A DNA stretch of 40,713 bases from a virus (taxonomy: Duplodnaviria; Caudoviricetes): positions 1 to 40,713 of IMG/VR virus record IMGVR_UViG_3300042924_003438; one strand, 5' to 3'. A model generated the notes under the pieces. The model was not told where the DNA came from and ran no database searches. It saw only the letters and a program-made list of their open reading frames with translations. Within the stretch, counting starts at the first letter, position 1. Every line of letters begins with the position of its first letter. A program made the position numbers and the translations under genes. Positions 24,743 to 35,202 of this stretch are shown piece by piece.

Positions 24743-25477
24743 TTATATCCTGTTCAAAACCATTCTCCAGACCGCCAACTTTTGCGCTATGATGATTGCC
24801 CGCTTTTTTCCTTCTTCTTCCACCCGATGCAACTGAGTTTTAAAATCAATGTAACTGTCAGCTTGTATCTTTTGTTTCTTTGCAATGTCCTGAGCCTCTT
24901 CCCAAATGGCTCGTTTTTGCCCTTCGGCGTAACCGATTAACCCAGCCTCCATTGCGGCGTCGTACCAATACACGGGAACGTCTTCGTATGATTCACCCTT
25001 AAAGCCGCTTAACATTTCGGGAAATTCTTCGTAAAACTTGCGCTTTGCCTCGACCTGTCTTTGTTCTTCTTCCATCTTTGCACGTTTCTTTTCGTCTTCC
25101 ATATCTACGGTAAAATAAACCTTTTGCCGCCAGTTGATATAAGCCGTTAAAATCCTTCCAATAGCAGCTAAGTCAACTTTGCCGTAAAGTTTATGGTCAT
25201 CAATATTCAATTCTTGCCGCGCAAACTTTTCAAAGGCAAGTTTAATTTCATCTACGGCAATTAATTTGTAAGTAGTTATAAACTTTGTAACCTCAAGCAA
25301 ATGCTCTGGACTTGCCTCAATGCCGTAAAGGGGAAGGATTTGTTTTACGACTTGGTTAATTTTGGGTAAAGATTCCACAATACCCGTTTTAAAAAGTCTT
25401 TTTTCTCGATTGTCGATAACAAGTTGAATATCCTGTATCTTTTCCTCGATTGTCATTGCAATGGCTGGTAAATTCAT
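24743..25477 (-). CDS. Putative replication accessory protein (helicase-loader position)
   Basis: Directly downstream of the initiator; helical; function inferred from position only. Confidence 0.45.
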   Translation of the reverse strand: MNLPAIAMTIEEKIQDIQLVIDNREKRLFKTGIVESLPKINQVVKQILPLYGIEASPEHLLEVTKFITTYKLIAVDEIKLAFEKFARQELNIDDHKLYGKVDLAAIGRILTAYINWRQKVYFTVDMEDEKKRAKMEEEQRQVEAKRKFYEEFPEMLSGFKGESYEDVPVYWYDAAMEAGLIGYAEGQKRAIWEEAQDIAKKQKIQADSYIDFKTQLHRVEEEGKKRAIIIAQKLAVWRMVLNRI

Positions 25478-25489
25478 ATAAGTTGGTTT

Positions 25490-26518
25490 TTATTGTGTTT
25501 GATATTTCTTCATAGCCTCAGCCAAAAGCCTGTCAACTTCATCGTCATACGCCTTTTTCTTTGCAGCTGGTGAAGACGTTTGGTAAGCCGTGTATATCTT
25601 TCCCGCCTGTCCGTATAAAATGGCTGGAGTAAAATTTGCTTTTAACCATTTGTCATTTAATGACCAAGCGGCTTGTAAAAATACTTTTAATGCCTCATTC
25701 GTATCGTTATTCCTGTCAACTTTTTCAATCCACCGTAACAAATATACCATACCTCCAGCATCTTTTGGGCTCATGATATAATGACCCTTTTGGTCAGTTG
25801 GGTATGCAGCGCCTGATAACTGTTCGAATGTTTGGCAAAACACGGTAAAGGCTTCGTAGGTCGGATTCGGCTTCCGCTCGGCTTTCGGCTCGGCGTCGGC
25901 TTTTCTTTCTTTTTGCGGCGCAACAATTTTTCTTTCTTTTTCTAAATGTGTAATTAAAGTAAAGGGATTAACCTTTTGACTTTTGTCAATTTCATTTTCA
26001 TCAATTACAATTTTTTCAAATGAAGTAAAATCTGAAAGATTTTTAATATCAACTGAGTTAGTAAATGTATTTAGTACTTGGTTAGCAACTGGTATAGGTT
26101 CGCCCTTTCGTGAAATTCCATTTGACTGTTTGGTATTTTCCATTTGCCCGTTTGGTAAAATGGTATTTACCTTTTGGTAATCTCCAATTTCCTCAAGATG
26201 GAAATTATCTGATAGATATAAATCTTCATTCAGAAACGCATACCAAATAGTTCTATCGTAAGCAATTTTATTATAATTGCCTTTTATTAAAATTTCCTTA
26301 CCTACCAATGATTCAATTATCCTTCTAACTTGTTTTTCAGTCCAAAATGGATAATATTCAGTTAGTGACTTATTTGTGTTGTAAGTCCAATACCTTAAAT
26401 CATGATAATTTGTTTTATTTGCTTTATTAAGCCTTATCCAGAATTGAAATGATTTAACCATTATAGCTTCATCAACTCCGTATCTTTTTGCGAATTCAAT
26501 GTTAAAAGAAAAATCCAT
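25490..26518 (-). CDS. Replication initiator / replisome organizer
   Basis: N-terminal winged helix (AKRYGVDEAI...YWTYNT...PFWTEKQVRRIIESL...DRTIWY); internal iteron-like repeats. Confidence 0.75.
   Translation of the reverse strand: MDFSFNIEFAKRYGVDEAIMVKSFQFWIRLNKANKTNYHDLRYWTYNTNKSLTEYYPFWTEKQVRRIIESLVGKEILIKGNYNKIAYDRTIWYAFLNEDLYLSDNFHLEEIGDYQKVNTILPNGQMENTKQSNGISRKGEPIPVANQVLNTFTNSVDIKNLSDFTSFEKIVIDENEIDKSQKVNPFTLITHLEKERKIVAPQKERKADAEPKAERKPNPTYEAFTVFCQTFEQLSGAAYPTDQKGHYIMSPKDAGGMVYLLRWIEKVDRNNDTNEALKVFLQAAWSLNDKWLKANFTPAILYGQAGKIYTAYQTSSPAAKKKAYDDEVDRLLAEAMKKYQTQ
26094..26180. repeat. Iteron-like repeats with 22-bp period (putative replication origin)
   Basis: ttccatttgactgtttggta (26116-26135), ttccatttgcccgtttggta (26138-26157), ggtatttaccttttggta (26162-26179), plus a degenerate copy ending at 26113. 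Confidence 0.65.
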
Positions 26519-26519
26519 T

Positions 26520-27005
26520 TTAGTCTATTTTATTAAGGTGAGCAAATTCCCCGTGGTATTTCAAGGCGGCGGCGTTGTAGGCACGGGCGGCGTCGATAAC
26601 ATCAATGTAGTAGCCAACATGATAACATTTTGAATTAAGCCAAATTTTCGCACGCCATTTCTCATATTTATTACACCAACCGACACCTTTATAACCACTT
26701 GTATTATTTATGTTTTTAGGTCTATTATGTAAATTTTGAGTATGTGTACATATTCTAAGATTAACTTTACGATTATCAAGTGTGCATTGGTTTATATGGT
26801 CGACAACATAACCTTTAGTTGCATTCATTATTTGCCTGTGCATAGAAATACATGATGTTTTGCCTTTTATAGAATAATCAGACCTTGTGGCATAATATAC
26901 ATCTTTTTTATTAATACGTACACACCACTTCCATTGGTTCAAATACTCGTAGTCATCATCGTCAACGATTGCAACTTTTCCCTGCGTTAAAATAATTTCT
27001 TTCAT
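26520..27005 (-). CDS. HNH endonuclease with AP2 DNA-binding domain
   Basis: MHRQIM, VDHIN..TLDNRKVNLRICT...N, NTSGYKGV, AARAYNAAALKYHGEFA. Confidence 0.92.
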   Translation of the reverse strand: MKEIILTQGKVAIVDDDDYEYLNQWKWCVRINKKDVYYATRSDYSIKGKTSCISMHRQIMNATKGYVVDHINQCTLDNRKVNLRICTHTQNLHNRPKNINNTSGYKGVGWCNKYEKWRAKIWLNSKCYHVGYYIDVIDAARAYNAAALKYHGEFAHLNKID

Positions 27006-27010
27006 AAGTT

Positions 27011-27111
27011 ATAAAATAAAAAAAACCCACAAAGGCACTACTCTTTATGGGTTTAATGAGGTAAATGATTTCCTCAAATACCTTTTGCGGGGTAGTGCTT
27101 CCTGCAAAAGG
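27011..27111 (-). promoter_or_regulatory. Structured leader: hairpin plus intrinsic terminator with complementary loops
   Basis: Stems at 27081-27111 and 27023-27054; loops AAGCACUAC and AGUAGUGC; U-tract follows the second stem. Confidence 0.7.
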
Positions 27112-27142
27112 ATATGTAAAATTACAAAATATTATTTACATT

Positions 27143-27562
27143 TTACTCATTCTCATTAAATTTTATCATTAAGGGCAAATCGTTAATTAAAGCAAATGCA
27201 ATAATTTCTCCCTCTGGTGGCGCATACTGATAATCCTTAGTTTCATCACAATATCTAAATTGATAAATAGGCTCTGGAATATTATCTCTTTCCGTATAAA
27301 TACCTTTTGAATACTGTAAAACATTTTCATCTTCCGCTTCATGCTTTATTAATAACATTAAATCAACCATATCATTACAAACCTTAACTTGTTCAGATTT
27401 TGACAGATAAACAGCGTCAGCAACTGTTGTAGTTTTTGCATCATACCAAATAATCTCATGACGAAAAACTTTGTGTTTATCTACAATTTTAAGTTCTTCT
27501 CCATATTTTCCTTGATGAATTAATATTTCATCGTTCCAAATTTCGTTTTTGTTAACTTTCAT
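27143..27562 (-). CDS. Hypothetical protein
   Basis: 139 aa, first ORF of the leftward arm. Confidence 0.65.
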   Translation of the reverse strand: MKVNKNEIWNDEILIHQGKYGEELKIVDKHKVFRHEIIWYDAKTTTVADAVYLSKSEQVKVCNDMVDLMLLIKHEAEDENVLQYSKGIYTERDNIPEPIYQFRYCDETKDYQYAPPEGEIIAFALINDLPLMIKFNENE

Positions 27563-27800
27563 GATTATTTTGTTTTACTTTTTTCATTTGCTTTGCTTTT
27601 TCCTGACATCAGGAACATGGTTAAAAATTGTGCAAGGGCTGGATTTAAAAATTTGCCGTCTTTCCGTGCTGTCACTCGTTTATTTTGCGCTCTTTCGACT
27701 TTATGAGTTAAGCCCTGTTAACCGTAAGCGTTTCGGTTCGTCTGCAATAATATGTAAACCTGTGACGAATTTTCCTTAATGTTTACATCTTGCTAAGCAA

Positions 27801-27808
27801 CAAAGATA
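27801..27808 (-). promoter_or_regulatory. Bacteroidota -7 promoter element (leftward)
   Basis: caaagata = rc TATCTTTG, matching TAnnTTTG. Confidence 0.6.
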
Positions 27809-27856
27809 AAAATAATTTTGTTAAAAATAATATTTAATTTATAAAATAATAAAGTT

Positions 27857-27864
27857 TATATTTG
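27857..27864 (+). promoter_or_regulatory. Bacteroidota -7 promoter element (rightward)
   Basis: TATATTTG, 4 nt before ATG 27869. Confidence 0.65.
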
Positions 27865-27868
27865 CCCT

Positions 27869-28570
27869 ATGAACTATTTGATTATAACCTCAATTACTGG
27901 AAACAAAGACGTACTGGTTGACCCTGATACGACCTTTGATAATTGTACTTACCTTGCTTTTGTCGATGAAGTTAACCATGACCTAAATGTCTGGAATCAA
28001 GTCCAGAACCATCAGTTTAGTATGATTGACCCGTTAAGGCACAGACGAAACGCAAAGGCTGAAAAGATACTTTGCATTCCCCAGGCTTTAAATATTGACT
28101 TTGATTATATCATTTGGCATGATGGAACACACCAACTGGCAATCCACCCCGAAGAAATTATTAAGGAATACGGCGACGCTGATTTATATGTTTTCCGTCA
28201 CGCGCAAAGACGTTGTTTATACCAAGAAATAGCCGCCGTGCTTGAGGCAAAGTTAGACAATGAAGACCTTGTAAAAAGTCAAATCAACTTTTATCAATCA
28301 GTTGGAATGCCGCCTTATTTTGGGCTATATGAAATGGGGTGTTATATCAGGAAGGTGAATCAAATTACGATTGATTTTGGTTTAGCTTGGTTTGAACAAG
28401 TCTGCAAGTTTTCCAGCCGTGACCAGATTTCTTTTCCTTTTGTCCTTTGGAACTACGAGGAAAGAATAAAGGTTGCAATCTTAAAAGGTAACTGTTCAAA
28501 ATATATCGGGACGCCGTTTGAAAACGAGGGAAATAAATATTTTATAAATCATGCAAACCACATTAAATGA
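27869..28570 (+). CDS. Glycosyltransferase-like protein (DUF616/TOD1-MUCI70 family)
   Basis: ITSITGNKD, IWHDG, FRHAQRRCLYQE, SSRDQISFPFVLW motifs. Confidence 0.8.
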   Translation: MNYLIITSITGNKDVLVDPDTTFDNCTYLAFVDEVNHDLNVWNQVQNHQFSMIDPLRHRRNAKAEKILCIPQALNIDFDYIIWHDGTHQLAIHPEEIIKEYGDADLYVFRHAQRRCLYQEIAAVLEAKLDNEDLVKSQINFYQSVGMPPYFGLYEMGCYIRKVNQITIDFGLAWFEQVCKFSSRDQISFPFVLWNYEERIKVAILKGNCSKYIGTPFENEGNKYFINHANHIK

Positions 28571-29676
28571 TACCATTATTTAAAGTTGCCATGAATCCAG
28601 AGGCATCAAAAGCCGTGGACAAAGTTTTATCCTCAGGCTTTATTGGTCAGGGTGAAGTGGTGGAGGAGTTTGAACGCCAATTAAAGCAAAGCTTCAATAA
28701 TCCTTACCTTGTTACGGTCAACTCAGGGACAAGCGCTTTGCAACTTGCTTTAAGAATAATTAAGGACAAACACCCCGAAAAAAAATATATTATATCAACT
28801 CCGTTGACTTGCACGGCGACCAACTGGGCAATACTTGCGGCTGGGTTTGAAATCATTTGGGCAGATATTGACCCTAACACTTTAAATATTTGTCCCTTAT
28901 CGGTCGCTAAATCTGTTACTCCTTTGGTTGCGGCGGTTATGGTTGTTCATTGGGGAGGTGCGGCAGCAGACGTAAAAAAAATAAAGTCATTAACAGGTCT
29001 TGATATTATCGAAGATTGTGCGCACGCCTTCGGTTCATACTATGAACTCCCAGCCACTAAAGATGAAAGTACATTGGTTGGGAACTCAGGAAATTACTGT
29101 TGCTTTTCTTTTCAAGCAATAAAACACCTTACCACGGGTGACGGTGGATTATTGATTTTACCAAATGAAGAAGAATATAAAAAGGCAAAGTTACTTCGTT
29201 GGTATGGCATTGACAGGGAAGGTGACAGAAAGGATTTTAGATGCGAAGCACCGATAAACGATTGGGGATATAAATTCCACATGAACGATATTAACGCAGC
29301 CATCGGGATTGAGAACCTTAAAATATTTGGGGATAACGTCAGAAGACACCAAAATAATGCTGGGTTTTACGACTGGTGGTTAAATGAAAACAGTAGGTTT
29401 ATAACCCCTTTATATTTTGACGAAGGCTCATCGTATTGGATATATTCCATTTTGGTTGAGGATAGGGACAATTTTCAAAGGGCAATGAAAGAACGTGGTG
29501 TAATGACCTCGCAAGTTCATGAGCGGAACGATTTACACCCGTGCGTAAAGCAATTTAAAACAGAACTACCAAACATTGAACAAGTAATTGGCAAGTTGTC
29601 AAGCCTTCCAGTCGGCTGGTGGGTGACGGACGAGGATAGGGAATATATTGTTAAACAGATAAAAAAAGGTTGGTGA
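28567..29676 (+). CDS. DegT/DnrJ/EryC1/StrS PLP-dependent sugar aminotransferase
   Basis: VNSGTSAL, IIEDCAHAFG, FSFQAIKHLTTGDGG (PLP Lys), GYKFHMNDINAAIG. Confidence 0.93.
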   Translation: MIPLFKVAMNPEASKAVDKVLSSGFIGQGEVVEEFERQLKQSFNNPYLVTVNSGTSALQLALRIIKDKHPEKKYIISTPLTCTATNWAILAAGFEIIWADIDPNTLNICPLSVAKSVTPLVAAVMVVHWGGAAADVKKIKSLTGLDIIEDCAHAFGSYYELPATKDESTLVGNSGNYCCFSFQAIKHLTTGDGGLLILPNEEEYKKAKLLRWYGIDREGDRKDFRCEAPINDWGYKFHMNDINAAIGIENLKIFGDNVRRHQNNAGFYDWWLNENSRFITPLYFDEGSSYWIYSILVEDRDNFQRAMKERGVMTSQVHERNDLHPCVKQFKTELPNIEQVIGKLSSLPVGWWVTDEDREYIVKQIKKGW

Positions 29677-30059
29677 TGATTAAGTTAATTGTAAGTGGTC
29701 GCGTCGGTCAAGACGCTGAGGTAAAAAATGTCGGTGATAATACCGTTTGTTCTTTTTCCGTAGCACACACGGAAAAGGTTTACGGGGCAACTCCATCGGA
29801 AAAGACTATTTGGGTGACGTGTTCAATCTGGGGTGAACGTGGTGTCAAACTTGCGCCTCACATTGTCAAAGGTACATACGTGGTCGTGGAAGGAACAGGC
29901 GGGGTAAATGGATACCTAAACAAGAATACTGGAGCAGCCGAAGCTGTCATTAGGTGTATGGTAAATTCTTTGGAATTTGGAGGCAAGTCAACAACTGGGG
30001 AAAATCCAAAGGTAACAGAATCAACGACATTTAAATCAGAATCAGAATTTCCTTTTTAA
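29676..30059 (+). CDS. ssb: Single-stranded DNA-binding protein
   Basis: GRVGQDAE, FSVA, KTIWVTCSIWG, KGTYVVVEG, C-terminal acidic PF tail. Confidence 0.9.
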   Translation: MIKLIVSGRVGQDAEVKNVGDNTVCSFSVAHTEKVYGATPSEKTIWVTCSIWGERGVKLAPHIVKGTYVVVEGTGGVNGYLNKNTGAAEAVIRCMVNSLEFGGKSTTGENPKVTESTTFKSESEFPF

Positions 30060-30060
30060 T

Positions 30061-30243
30061 ATGAATGCTGAAAGAAAAAAAGAATACAGGTTAACCATAA
30101 GCGATTATCAAAGAAAAAAGCATTTGGAATATCTCAGAAATAAATACAATGCTTTATCACCAGAGAAAAAGGCTGAATTGCTTGCTAAAAGAAAAGCAAA
30201 TTATCAAGCAAACAAACAAAAAAAGATTAATGGCATATTTTAA
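30061..30243 (+). CDS. Small basic helical protein
   Basis: 60 aa, Lys/Arg-rich. Confidence 0.55.
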   Translation: MNAERKKEYRLTISDYQRKKHLEYLRNKYNALSPEKKAELLAKRKANYQANKQKKINGIF

Positions 30244-30769
30244 CTACGATATACCCTCAAGTTATTATAAGAATAATATCGGTAAGACCCTTTACAATAC
30301 GGTGCTTACAATGAATCCATCTGTTATCATTGAGTTCGGCACGTTGCACGGTTATTCAGCCGTCGCAATGGCTCAGGCTTTACGAGACTTAGATAGCGAT
30401 ACCGTCATTATGTGTCATGACCTTTGGCAAAAGTACCCGTATAAAAATACGTCGATGGAAAAGACGCAAGATACCATCGACGCGCTGGGGCTAACAAAAT
30501 ATATTGAATTGATTGAATGGGATTTTTATAATTGGAAACCCGAACCTTTTGATTTAATGCACTTTGATATAAGCAACCACGCTGGGCATTTAAAGTATTT
30601 AAAAAGTTTAAAGGAATACCATTTTTTAAACGGCTCAATTTTATTTGAAGGCGGGAGCAAGGAAAGAGACAAAGTAGAATGGATGAAAGATTTTCAGCCT
30701 ATCAATTCATCTGGTTTAAACTTTATTACAATTAACGAGGACTTTCCTTCTTTATCCCTACTCCTATGA
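30230..30769 (+). CDS. Class I SAM-dependent methyltransferase (likely start ATG 30230)
   Basis: IIEFGTLHGYSA motif I; FDLMHFD. Confidence 0.8.
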   Translation: MAYFNYDIPSSYYKNNIGKTLYNTVLTMNPSVIIEFGTLHGYSAVAMAQALRDLDSDTVIMCHDLWQKYPYKNTSMEKTQDTIDALGLTKYIELIEWDFYNWKPEPFDLMHFDISNHAGHLKYLKSLKEYHFLNGSILFEGGSKERDKVEWMKDFQPINSSGLNFITINEDFPSLSLLL

Positions 30770-31470
30770 GGTTAGCCGTTGTTGCCTCAGGTTGGCATTT
30801 CCCCTTAGATTTTTATGAATCAGTCGCAAGGCAAATCGTTGTCAAAGATTGGGCGTATGATTTATTTTGCATCTCACACCGTGACCCAAAGTATTCAAAG
30901 GAGGAAAAAAAGGATTTGGCATTAAAGGAATTGGACACTATTCTTTATAAAGAAATTGCAACCATTGAGCAGATTAAAGACTTAGGCTGGAATTATAAAG
31001 AATACCCGAACACCGTTGGCGATTGGGGATGTTCTAACCAATGGCTGGAAGAACACAATTTTACTGAATACGATTTACTTCTTTTTACGCATGATGACAA
31101 TTTTATTCATAACTACAAATGGTTCGGGAACATCATTCACTTTATGGGAGAAAACTGGGAAATACTTTCTAATTCATGCGGTGACCCTGTTGGTTGGCTT
31201 CGGGGTTCATGTGAGTTCTTTAAGCCTTCTTTGTTGCATAAGATTGGCGGCAAGTTTGATTTGTCATTGGTGACGTTGAACAGGGAAGAAGAAGTTTATT
31301 CACCAGATAAATGGGTTGATATTTTTGATTGGAACAACACGGTACACCCGTTGATGAAGTTTATATCGGAAAACAAAATAGTAGTTGGACATCTGTCAAA
31401 TACTTACAGGCATTCAATGTTTGTGTCCGAGGGTGAACGTGGATTTATTTCCCCAATTTTAAAAAAATAA
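30766..31470 (+). CDS. Putative GT-A fold glycosyltransferase
   Basis: YDLLLFTHDDNF (DxD-like) motif in a sugar-enzyme cluster. Confidence 0.6.
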   Translation: MRLAVVASGWHFPLDFYESVARQIVVKDWAYDLFCISHRDPKYSKEEKKDLALKELDTILYKEIATIEQIKDLGWNYKEYPNTVGDWGCSNQWLEEHNFTEYDLLLFTHDDNFIHNYKWFGNIIHFMGENWEILSNSCGDPVGWLRGSCEFFKPSLLHKIGGKFDLSLVTLNREEEVYSPDKWVDIFDWNNTVHPLMKFISENKIVVGHLSNTYRHSMFVSEGERGFISPILKK

Positions 31471-31473
31471 TAT

Positions 31474-31481
31474 TATATTTG
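31474..31481 (+). promoter_or_regulatory. Bacteroidota -7 promoter element
   Basis: TATATTTG upstream of ATG 31500. Confidence 0.5.
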
Positions 31482-31499
31482 TATAATAATTTAAAAAAA

Positions 31500-31670
31500 A
31501 TGAACACAACAAAACCTCAAGAAATGTACGGGGTAACCTTTAGAAACAAGGTTATAAGGGAAAGGCTGCTGGATATTCAATTTGATTTATGGAAGGCAAC
31601 AGGGAAAAAGCATTCAATGGAAGCAGTCCTTGAAGTTTTATTGAATACCTACAAAAGTATAAATAAATGA
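31500..31670 (+). CDS. Small putative DNA-binding protein (ribbon-helix-helix-like)
   Basis: Beta strand followed by two helices (YGVTF...SMEAVLEVLL). Confidence 0.45.
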   Translation: MNTTKPQEMYGVTFRNKVIRERLLDIQFDLWKATGKKHSMEAVLEVLLNTYKSINK

Positions 31671-32674
31671 GGATTGGCATAGTTTGTAATCTAAGCAGCC
31701 CAACGACTGACTATTATCGCACGGTGAACCCATTTATTAGGCTTCGGGAGGTTTGCCCTCCGAACTTTGTCATAAAGATGATTAACCCTGATACCGTTAA
31801 GTGGTATGATTTTTATGACGTTGATGTTGTTATCTTCCAGCGTGCCAACGGCAATGATTTACTTGGAATGATTAATGAGGTTAAGCGAATGGGTAAGAAG
31901 ATTATCTTAGACCACGACGACCTATTACACGAGGTTAGTGCAGCCAATCCAGCAAGTCAACATTTTAACAAGCCTCAGGTAAAAGAATCAGTCGAAAAGG
32001 CGTTTAAATATGCTGATTGGGTTATGACCTCAACCCCGTACCTAAAAGAATTTTACTCCCAGTTTTACGATACAGACAAAATTACCGTTGTTCCAAATGC
32101 TATTGACTTTACCGTTACACCGATGCAGCCTGTAAAAAGGGATAAGTTAATGGACGCAAAGAAACGAGTTATGTGGCGCGGAAGTCAGACGCACCTTGAA
32201 GACCTTGCAACGGTAAAAAACTTTTGGATTGAGTTACAAAAAAACGATAAGGTTGAATTAGGTATGGTTGGTTTAGCTGATTGGTTGGGCAAAACATTGT
32301 ATCCTAAGGCAATTATTGTACCGTGGAATAATTCCCTTTTCCAATACTTTGAAATGGTTAAACACTCAGCGCCACACTATGGCGTATTCCCTTTGACGAT
32401 TGATAATTTTAATCAAGCGAAGTCAAATAATTTTGCGATGGAAATGTTGGTCGCTGGTTGTATTTCATACGCACCTGAGGAAATCAAGGAATTTAATATT
32501 CCAGGGGTGCGGACATATAAAAACGAATTAGATTTAATCCACAAATTTACTAAGGCTTTAGACAAAGATGATGCGTACTTTGTTGACTTAGAGGCTGGAC
32601 GCAAATGGCTGAAGGAAGAAAGGGACTTGGTTAAGGTAAATGAATTAAGGGTAAATGTATTAAACGCTATATGA
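31667..32674 (+). CDS. GT-B fold glycosyltransferase
   Basis: YYRTVNP, VVIFQR, ILDHDD, VVPNAID, WRGSQTH, PLTIDNFNQAKSN..ME motifs. Confidence 0.8.
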   Translation: MRIGIVCNLSSPTTDYYRTVNPFIRLREVCPPNFVIKMINPDTVKWYDFYDVDVVIFQRANGNDLLGMINEVKRMGKKIILDHDDLLHEVSAANPASQHFNKPQVKESVEKAFKYADWVMTSTPYLKEFYSQFYDTDKITVVPNAIDFTVTPMQPVKRDKLMDAKKRVMWRGSQTHLEDLATVKNFWIELQKNDKVELGMVGLADWLGKTLYPKAIIVPWNNSLFQYFEMVKHSAPHYGVFPLTIDNFNQAKSNNFAMEMLVAGCISYAPEEIKEFNIPGVRTYKNELDLIHKFTKALDKDDAYFVDLEAGRKWLKEERDLVKVNELRVNVLNAI

Positions 32675-33941: not shown

Positions 33942-34574
33942 ATGAGGACAAAGACAAGCGATAATTGGAAGTTTAGAAGCGGCACATGGGATGCACTTAA
34001 AACGTCCTATATAGACTTTGAAGATTATCCTTTGATTGGTTCTCCGATTACAATTGAGCAGCAAACAGAAACTATATTATGTATTAATCACAATAAGATT
34101 AATCATAATTCTTTAGTTAATATGTTTGTTGACGATTACCGTCTTGAGCGTTATTGGAATAGAATAGATTACTACGCAAATATTTTCAAACAGGCTAAAT
34201 ATGTAATGACTCCAGACTTCTCAGCTTTGATTGGTATGCCAGAGGAAATGATTAAATGGAATATTTACCGAAGTAGGTTAATAGGACACGTTTACGAAAA
34301 GTATAAAATAAATGTAATTCCTACTATAACATGGACTAATTCAATAAGTTATCCGTATATTTGTAAAGGAATCAAACATAAAAGCACTATTGCCGTGTCA
34401 AACATTGGCGCAAGGAATGATTTAGCAATAGGAATATTCAATGCTGGATTACAGGAAGTTATAAAACAAGTTAACCCGACGCAAGTAATTATTTGTTCAA
34501 ACAATAAATATAAAGATATGTATCAAGACAAATTATTTTATCACATAAAACCTTTTTGGGATGGGAGGGCGTAG
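33942..34574 (+). CDS. DUF4417-like protein
   Basis: FVDDYRLERYW, MTPDFS, WNIYRSR, VIPTITW motifs. Confidence 0.75.
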   Translation: MRTKTSDNWKFRSGTWDALKTSYIDFEDYPLIGSPITIEQQTETILCINHNKINHNSLVNMFVDDYRLERYWNRIDYYANIFKQAKYVMTPDFSALIGMPEEMIKWNIYRSRLIGHVYEKYKINVIPTITWTNSISYPYICKGIKHKSTIAVSNIGARNDLAIGIFNAGLQEVIKQVNPTQVIICSNNKYKDMYQDKLFYHIKPFWDGRA

Positions 34575-35202
34575 TGGACAAGGAACAGGCGGAGGAGGTG
34601 CGCCATTATTTACTCCAGGGAGCTCTGGGGTTGATGAATATTCACCGAGTGATGCTAATAATTCTTTAAGTGAAATGTCAAACAAAGACCTTAACTATAC
34701 AAGTTATACGGCAACTGATAAATTAGATACAAATTGGAAAGAGGTAATTAATTCTTATACTAATAGAGGGTATTATGTAAATGCTAAAATTGTAGATGGA
34801 AATATTAATGAAAACGATATAAAGTATATAAAAACATTAAATGCATCTTTGGATAAAGTAAAATCGGAGAAAGGAACTTTTTACAGGGGGATGGGAATGA
34901 ATTCAGGTTCAAGAACTGAAAAACTTGTAAATTTTTTATTAGAAAACAAAGGCAAAAACATTAAAATGAATACATTTTTAAGTACATCTTCAAGGAGTAA
35001 TATTGAGTTTGGTAATTCTAAACAAAACAAAGTTTTTTTTACAGTTGTTGGAAAAAATGGTAAAAATGTAAAAGGATTATCATCACACCCAGGAGAAGAT
35101 GAATATTTGTTTAAAACAGGGTCTAAATTTAAAGTTAGTAAGACTTCAAAAGAAACTAAAAATGGAAAGGAATTAATAAACATTACATTAACTGAAAAAT
35201 AA
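34561..35202 (+). CDS. ADP-ribosyltransferase, R-S-E (VIP2/C3/Alt-like) class
   Basis: YT..GY..VN, FYRGM (Arg), FLSTS (STS), GEDEYLF (ExE); Gly-rich MGGRSG N-terminus. Confidence 0.85.
   Translation: MGGRSGQGTGGGGAPLFTPGSSGVDEYSPSDANNSLSEMSNKDLNYTSYTATDKLDTNWKEVINSYTNRGYYVNAKIVDGNINENDIKYIKTLNASLDKVKSEKGTFYRGMGMNSGSRTEKLVNFLLENKGKNIKMNTFLSTSSRSNIEFGNSKQNKVFFTVVGKNGKNVKGLSSHPGEDEYLFKTGSKFKVSKTSKETKNGKELINITLTEK

Follow-up and report, generated by a model that had tools for sequence, protein, structure and literature searches.

A predicted leader RNA with covarying hairpin loops ahead of the replication genes in one phage family

The window, which is the whole 40,713-nt stretch of DNA that was analysed, is the IMG/VR record IMGVR_UViG_3300042924_003438, a complete tailed-phage record with direct terminal repeats and 37.5% G+C. 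Terminase, portal, tail, endolysin and initiator genes were identified among the 53 ORFs scanned. Bacteroidota-type TAnnTTTG boxes lie at 27808 (-) and 27857 (+), ahead of two divergent gene blocks, and the closest terminase matches are mostly to Riemerella and Nonlabens phages at about 45% identity, which together suggest that the host is a Bacteroidota bacterium. The cluster at 27869-32674 (+) contains glycosyltransferase-like, DegT aminotransferase, methyltransferase and SSB genes, and is possibly involved in sugar modification of DNA or of the virion. In the block preceding the terminase genes, the ORF at 34561-35202 (+) matches Pfam ADPrib_exo_Tox (E 2.4e-11) and ART domains, and its PHROG matches are head-related proteins; it is likely a phage ADP-ribosyltransferase domain protein.

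A non-coding leader of about 95 nt (27017-27112, minus strand) lies between the ORF at 27143-27562 and the HNH gene, and folds into three hairpins (Table 1). Its minimum free energy is -32.8 kcal/mol, compared with -18.0 +/- 3.3 for shuffled sequences (z -4.54), and none of 200 shuffles was as good. The first two hairpins, the terminator stem and the U-tract are all located where the initial annotation had placed them, and H3 was recovered as a terminator-like site by a terminator scan of the window. That annotation had also reported a 7-nt complementarity between the loops of H1 and H3 (GCACUAC/GUAGUGC), which is confirmed and is kept by paired changes among homologues (see below). Judged on one sequence, the loop match is only moderately unusual. 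Matches of at least 7 bp occurred 0.1 times per resampled 40.7-kb genome with a relaxed descriptor (10 resamples), and homologues were therefore needed.

Table 1. Coordinates of the leader, its parts and the genes that follow it
Feature	Position	Strand	Description
Bacteroidota -7 promoter-like box	27117-27124	-	TAATTTTA; A replaces consensus G; predicted start ~27112, at the foot of H1
Hairpin 1 (H1)	27081-27111	-	10 pairs and one mismatch; 9-nt loop AAGCACUAC at 27100-27092
Loop-1 code	27092-27098	-	GCACUAC; 5' half of the kissing helix
Hairpin 2 (H2)	27057-27076	-	Spacer with variable loop, from the fold; loop 4-10 nt across homologues
Hairpin 3 (H3)	27023-27054	-	Intrinsic-terminator-like; 12 pairs; 8-nt loop AGUAGUGC at 27042-27035
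Loop-3 code	27035-27041	-	GUAGUGC; 3' half of the kissing helix; last 7 of 8 loop bases
U-tract	27018-27025	-	8 U, from the sequence
HNH-AP2 endonuclease gene	26520-27005	-	First gene of the operon here; ATG at 27005; Pfam HNH_3 above cut-off, AP2 below; PHROG 99
Replication initiator gene	25490-26518	-	PHROG 11233, replication initiation protein, E 2.9e-27
Gene after the initiator	24743-25477	-	PHROG 26016 (unknown function); 12-nt gap to the initiator; likely same operon

Loci were gathered through the initiator (33 viral, 71 metagenome and 4 genome), the upstream ORF (3) and a DNA pattern (120 listed). A covariance model made from 29 sequences, with the pseudoknot left out, gave 34 strong matches in 37 sources, 6 in 100 and 45 in 91. 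The 5'-truncated loci L278 and L299, the repeat records L177, L226 and L233, and weak opposite-strand matches over H1 (35 bits or less) were removed before any counts, and 80 matches remained, 61 of them distinct and 19 exact duplicates. A single phage family makes up the sample, which leans towards the initiator owing to the way the loci were collected. Whole records carry the element in 33 of 40 cases, the misses being four fragments cut near the initiator, two distant phages and one MAG; it is absent from two complete records with distant initiator N-termini (36-37%). The degenerate DNA pattern, which covered 12 of 64 parts, found the element in 7 of the 120 loci listed, 3 of these in records already sampled. 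Among cultured phages, blastn returned no homologue, the sole match being weak, unrelated and 42 nt long. The relaxed descriptor found none in Riemerella phage RAP44 or Nonlabens phage P12024L (both whole), and none in the portions covered of Flavobacterium phage elemoF (16 kb) and Bacteroides phage B124-14 (9.5 kb). A covariance-model search of 151 genomes of the phylum of G040, run with a narrow model, strict filters and no positive control, found none.

The compensatory loop changes that the initial annotation had expected in homologous phage leaders are present. In a MAFFT alignment of 29 sequences, all seven loop-loop pairs change on both sides, 97.4% of the cells pair and there are no G-U pairs. 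In the model-fitted alignment of the 61 distinct sequences 94.7% of the loop-loop cells pair, and the unpaired remainder comes mostly from one misaligned 4-member subfamily. The pseudoknot was fitted into neither alignment. The stems covary as well, with changes on both sides in 9 of 11 pair columns of H1, in 5 of 7 pairs of H2 (91.7% paired, 61 sequences) and in all 8 pairs of H3 (98.6% paired, 61 sequences). Pairing over the whole structure is 89.5-94%, versus 39-54% in slid controls, which preserve kinship; the shuffled controls ignore it. This covariation settles that the loop match is real. The homologues carry 17 different 7-nt codes among 61 distinct sequences, a count that is descriptive only, since the codes were read off by complementarity, the test being the alignment counts. 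One record, G018, has a second copy (L377, G018:C1:39946-40041) with a single kiss mismatch and a 6-bp match. It neighbours a perfect copy with the same loop 3, and is a natural mutant of the kiss.

Conservation of single bases is low. No unpaired base outside the U-tract is 97% conserved among the 61 homologues, only one paired U reaches that level, and the loop bases flanking the code stay below 90%. Invariant bases are found solely in the arms of H1, and the H2 stem has near-constant A-U pairs beneath its variable loop.

All 61 distinct homologues have a TAnnTTT(G/A) box immediately before the leader, 16-20 nt ahead of the code. The promoter-like motif of the initial annotation is present, with its coordinates corrected to 27124-27117 and with A for the consensus G. 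The last base of the box is G in 31 homologues and A in 30, the window copy being among the latter. In the available text of PMC6847099, the Bacteroidota consensus has a nearly invariant G in the box and a spacing of 4-5 nt to the start. Since A stands where that G is nearly invariant, the promoter is predicted to be weak in the window copy, though it is backed by the family. The same published spacing would place the transcription start at the foot of H1, and the leader could also be reached by transcripts that begin at the upstream box at 27808. The palindrome TGTAAA-N14-TTTACA, which arises through the A-for-G variant of the box, forms an inverted repeat at 27115-27140 (-) that overlaps the box and was seen in 20 of 67 upstream variants, where it might serve as an operator or extend the promoter. 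The word GTAA stands 15 nt ahead of the box in 39 of the 67 variants.

The 3' part of the leader has a stem containing G+C and then a U-tract, which is the anatomy of an intrinsic (Rho-independent) terminator. The 9 nt after the last G-C pair contain 6-9 U in all 61 homologues, and H3 has a mean energy of -14.9 kcal/mol. Among the leader genes, 60 of 61 have at least 7 U in the 9 nt preceding their start codon, versus 13 of 155 ordinary ORFs of the same phages, so that the U-run is specific to the leader genes and does not serve these phages as a translation signal in general. The stems comprise 9-12 pairs in H3 and 10-14 in H1, and the distance from code to code is 49-54 nt. When the codes are kept unpaired, the loop of H3 measures 8 nt in 59 of 61 homologues, with one free base 5' of its code in 59 and none 3' of it in any. 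Forcing both codes unpaired costs 0.4 kcal/mol on average, so both loops are free when the full length folds. In 57 of 61 homologues the fold of the sense strand is better than that of the opposite strand, and 121 of 1342 H1/H3 pairs on the sense strand are G-U. A nested antiterminator was not found, the best alternative duplexes having a mean of -6.0 or -5.1 kcal/mol versus -14.6 for the native arms (61 homologues). The kiss, which does not extend in 36 of 61, is therefore the only conserved contact touching the terminator. Promoter-like boxes on the opposite strand occur in 18 of 61 homologues, scattered within the downstream gene, versus 25% in control windows.

An Rfam check of the leader found no family. 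There were no matches at the gathering score across the window, and the nine matches at E<=10 in 26800-27900 were all under their gathering scores, none of them of P4 CI, IsrK or C4 type. The best of these weak matches, Listeria rli38 (40.2 of 49 bits), was rejected, as it rests on a generic hairpin and terminator. No published description of the leader was found in the literature searched, which takes in few of the subscription journals, and the available part of PMC5737381 contains no matching motif. Fremin et al. (2023) catalogued 8,495 candidate viral RNAs from IMG/VR (PMC10690425); three of its six supplement files hold no match, and the catalogue as a whole may hold part of the motif. 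Judged from its sequences, the predicted phage leader RNA is a real element that is uncatalogued in Rfam terms and has unusually clean loop-loop covariation.

The initial annotation had tied the leader to the HNH gene, an association that is incidental. The first gene behind the leader varies, and encodes an HNH-AP2 protein, an N6/N4 DNA methylase, a short HTH protein, an unknown protein or an initiator-type protein. Among the first genes scanned (the window and 10 loci), the matches were to HNH-AP2, DNA methylase or HTH families, with three genes having no match and one a weak DUF; Pfam N6_N4_Mtase was present in all three methylase-type genes scanned. The HNH gene is missing at the leader in L285, L287, L289, L346 and others. 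In L346 the initiator follows the leader directly, and its N-terminus is 100% identical to that of the window initiator over residues 1-40. Because the first gene varies, the HNH gene is a passenger and the leader part of the replication module. A methylase cassette with its own leader copy lies upstream of the initiator cassette in L008, L009, L014, L022, L024, L025, L034 and L297, and these separate copies suggest that the leader moves around as a modular unit of expression. The start codon lies 3-21 nt beyond the end of the model in all 61 homologues and an internal TAnnTTTG is found in only one, so the downstream gene likely needs read-through.

Of 52 loci, 23 have a tRNA-like shell preceding the leader (including L002, L007, L010, L011, L015, L016, L018, L020, L023, L024, L283, L290, L302 and L324), often 45-72 nt ahead of it and sometimes in tandem. 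These shells have constant acceptor-stem-like ends, a T-arm-like 3' part and a freely changing interior of 61-171 nt. The window copy (27632-27793, minus strand, 162 nt) follows the box at 27808 in a block that is 93-99% conserved in several phages, and it folds no better than shuffles. ARAGORN called only some of the shells, as tRNA-Tyr or undetermined, and none in the window. They are possibly degenerate tRNAs, tRNA-like decoys or processing signals.

The position and anatomy of the leader fit the pseudoknot or attenuator that the initial annotation had proposed. It is somewhat more probable than an even chance that the leader acts as a cis attenuator without a small-molecule pocket, its kiss hindering the terminator so that some transcripts enter the replication operon. 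After a start at its foot, H1 would fold first together with H2, and loop 1 would be displayed. The loop-3 bases would exit the polymerase about when the U-tract is reached, so that the kiss and the terminator stem would compete in a short window. Once the kiss had formed, H1, the 7-bp helix and the upper part of H3 would be stacked as a rod whose length is near the reach of the linker with H2 folded. Since this rod is about as long as the linker can span, the bottom of the terminator stem would be held open, and read-through would follow. Should the stem close first and the terminator fire, an RNA of about 95 nt would be released. In a rough estimate from helix dimensions, the kissed rod measures 62-81 A and the linker reaches 65-74 A with H2 folded. 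The estimate is borderline; it is compatible with a taut structure, and larger bends would permit the kiss and the full terminator together. A ruler test did not point to extra constraint on the linker: its path without H2 had an SD of 1.95, no smaller than the 1.48 of the distance between the codes, and the lengths of its two parts did not offset each other (rho 0.005).

The direction of the effect, with the kiss as the ON state, is presumed by analogy with the guanidine-IV riboswitch. There, as described in the available text of PMC11611296, a long-range kissing loop prevents terminator assembly within a narrow transcription window, with single-molecule support, and its discoverers proposed that two kissing hairpins sterically exclude the terminator stem (PMC7736828, in the sections available). 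The missing consensus G of the window promoter box counts against an attenuator, and so does the kiss of the second G018 copy, which matches over just 6 bp. No regulatory input that would shift the balance between kiss and terminator was found, and a fixed leak or a shape-reading protein is more likely to set it than a small molecule. The ColE1 RNAI/RNAII pair also forms a 7-bp kissing complex, which is bound by Rop; it involves two RNAs and controls primer formation. The 7-bp kiss of the leader is similar in that a protein could read it through its shape.

The terminated RNA of about 95 nt may itself be the product, a compact RNA that the kiss closes, singly or in head-to-tail dimers, and that acts as a protein-binding RNA or a decoy, with read-through as a leak. 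This is unlikely. A promoter-like box before and a strong terminator after the leader would release such an RNA, and its loops are free at a cost of only about 0.4 kcal/mol. However, all 61 copies stand right before a start codon, and some records have a separate copy for each gene cassette. The leader also lacks 97%-conserved unpaired bases other than in the U-tract, and no target carrying the code was found: within 3 kb, exact third copies of a locus's own code occur 0.16 times per locus versus 0.26 for foreign codes (73 loci). In 11 long records the values are 0.75 and 1.86, and all nine extra matches lie inside ORFs. Nor did exact 7-mers of the terminator loop match the start codons of neighbouring genes.

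It is also conceivable, while quite unlikely, that the codes serve as barcodes for self-repression, loop 3 of the released RNA kissing a nascent loop 1 in trans, blocking the cis kiss and raising termination. If true, this would provide replication feedback and a code-specific exclusion of related phages, comparable to that of P4 CI RNA and to plasmid incompatibility. The occurrence of 17 codes within one phage family is consistent with it, as are the zero G-U pairs in the kiss on the MAFFT alignment and the different codes in seven of the eight two-copy records. Yet four of those seven share one related second copy, and the single record with a shared loop-3 code (G018, 1 of 8) is about the chance rate of 0.07. 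Nor do the codes evolve faster, code columns having 5.6-5.9 changes per column versus 5.3-5.7 in the H1 stem and more in unpaired columns. No integrase or repressor family was matched among the 53 ORFs of the window, and a cis kiss should outrun a trans kiss.

In keeping with such self-repression, the genes under control serve replication, as with P4 CI, and RNA-RNA pairing in a leader controls termination before replication genes in P4 CI RNA with seqA/seqC and in Gifsy-1 IsrK, according to the available text of PMC4825925. P4 CI differs in that a processed antisense RNA with two targets causes termination there, whereas the phage leader has two complementary sites that are both hairpin loops; the leader has no Rfam match to this type and no exact third site. 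The pT181-type attenuators, in the parts of PMC4878617 available, share a 5' sensing hairpin and an intrinsic terminator, with loop-loop kissing setting specificity. They differ in requiring an antisense RNA made separately, and an antiterminator by which the terminator's 5' arm is sequestered; at the phage leader no such antiterminator was found, and opposite-strand promoter-like boxes are not in excess. The chances also seem slim for a ligand-free attenuator with both actions, in which the kiss would open the terminator in cis and the released 95-nt RNAs would shut matching nascent copies in trans. If that were true, a 7-letter RNA code in each phage would set replication feedback and exclude superinfecting phages with the same code, and the family would constitute a naturally occurring collection of orthogonal transcription switches for Bacteroidota.

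The kiss may instead have the opposite polarity and stabilise a pause or the terminator (OFF), with polymerase passing when a protein of the phage or the host disrupts the kiss or binds H2; this appears rather improbable. Lambda N, which acts at tR1 ahead of O and P, is the model for this. Lambda tR1/nutR resembles the leader as a partial terminator ahead of phage replication genes; it gates O and P, is Rho-dependent and has no loop-loop contact. With its one free base on the 5' side only, loop 3 has the form of a kissing loop that could stack while the stem is closed. At 8 nt it is long for the loop of a terminator, which might therefore require a helper, and H2 has near-constant A-U pairs under a variable loop. 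Against this, the ORFs scanned gave no match to an antiterminator-like protein family, and in the published text available the sole tested RNA of the same architecture, guanidine-IV, works the other way.

A small-molecule riboswitch related to guanidine-IV or Gd4v is very improbable, even though the topology is shared. In guanidine-IV (GGAM-1) and Gd4v a 5' hairpin loop forms a pseudoknot with the loop of an intrinsic terminator followed by a U-tract (PMC7736828, PMC11611296 and PMC9788692, as far as available). These RNAs are also about 90-100 nt long, without a strand-exchange antiterminator, and lie directly upstream of a gene. In contrast to the many highly conserved bases in their pseudoknot region (PMC9788692, available sections), the phage leader has 17 interchangeable codes in which every position varies, flanked by bases below 90% conservation, and it has an extra middle hairpin. 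The gene context differs too, with sugE, MATE, GNAT and transaminase genes (exporters and acetyltransferases) behind the riboswitches in the text available, and replication, nuclease and methylase genes behind the phage leader. A DNA-level structure, such as a single-stranded origin or operator palindromes, is hardly tenable, for all the nearness of the initiator gene and the restriction of invariant bases to the H1 arms, given the promoter-like box before the leader, the U-tract after it, the strand-specific G-U pairs and the better fold of the sense strand.

Antitermination by a kissing loop has one demonstrated case among riboswitch architectures, guanidine-IV, which includes a ligand pocket (PMC7736828 and PMC11611296, in their available sections). 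By analogy, the cis attenuator favoured here suggests that phages may use the guanidine-IV geometry without the pocket to meter their replication genes. The 17 natural code variants on a fixed scaffold would make a test set for the action of a loop-loop contact on an intrinsic terminator. The control of the passage from early to replication genes in Bacteroidota phages is, to our knowledge, little described, and the leader would provide a handle on it, as well as possible orthogonal parts for engineering Bacteroidota.
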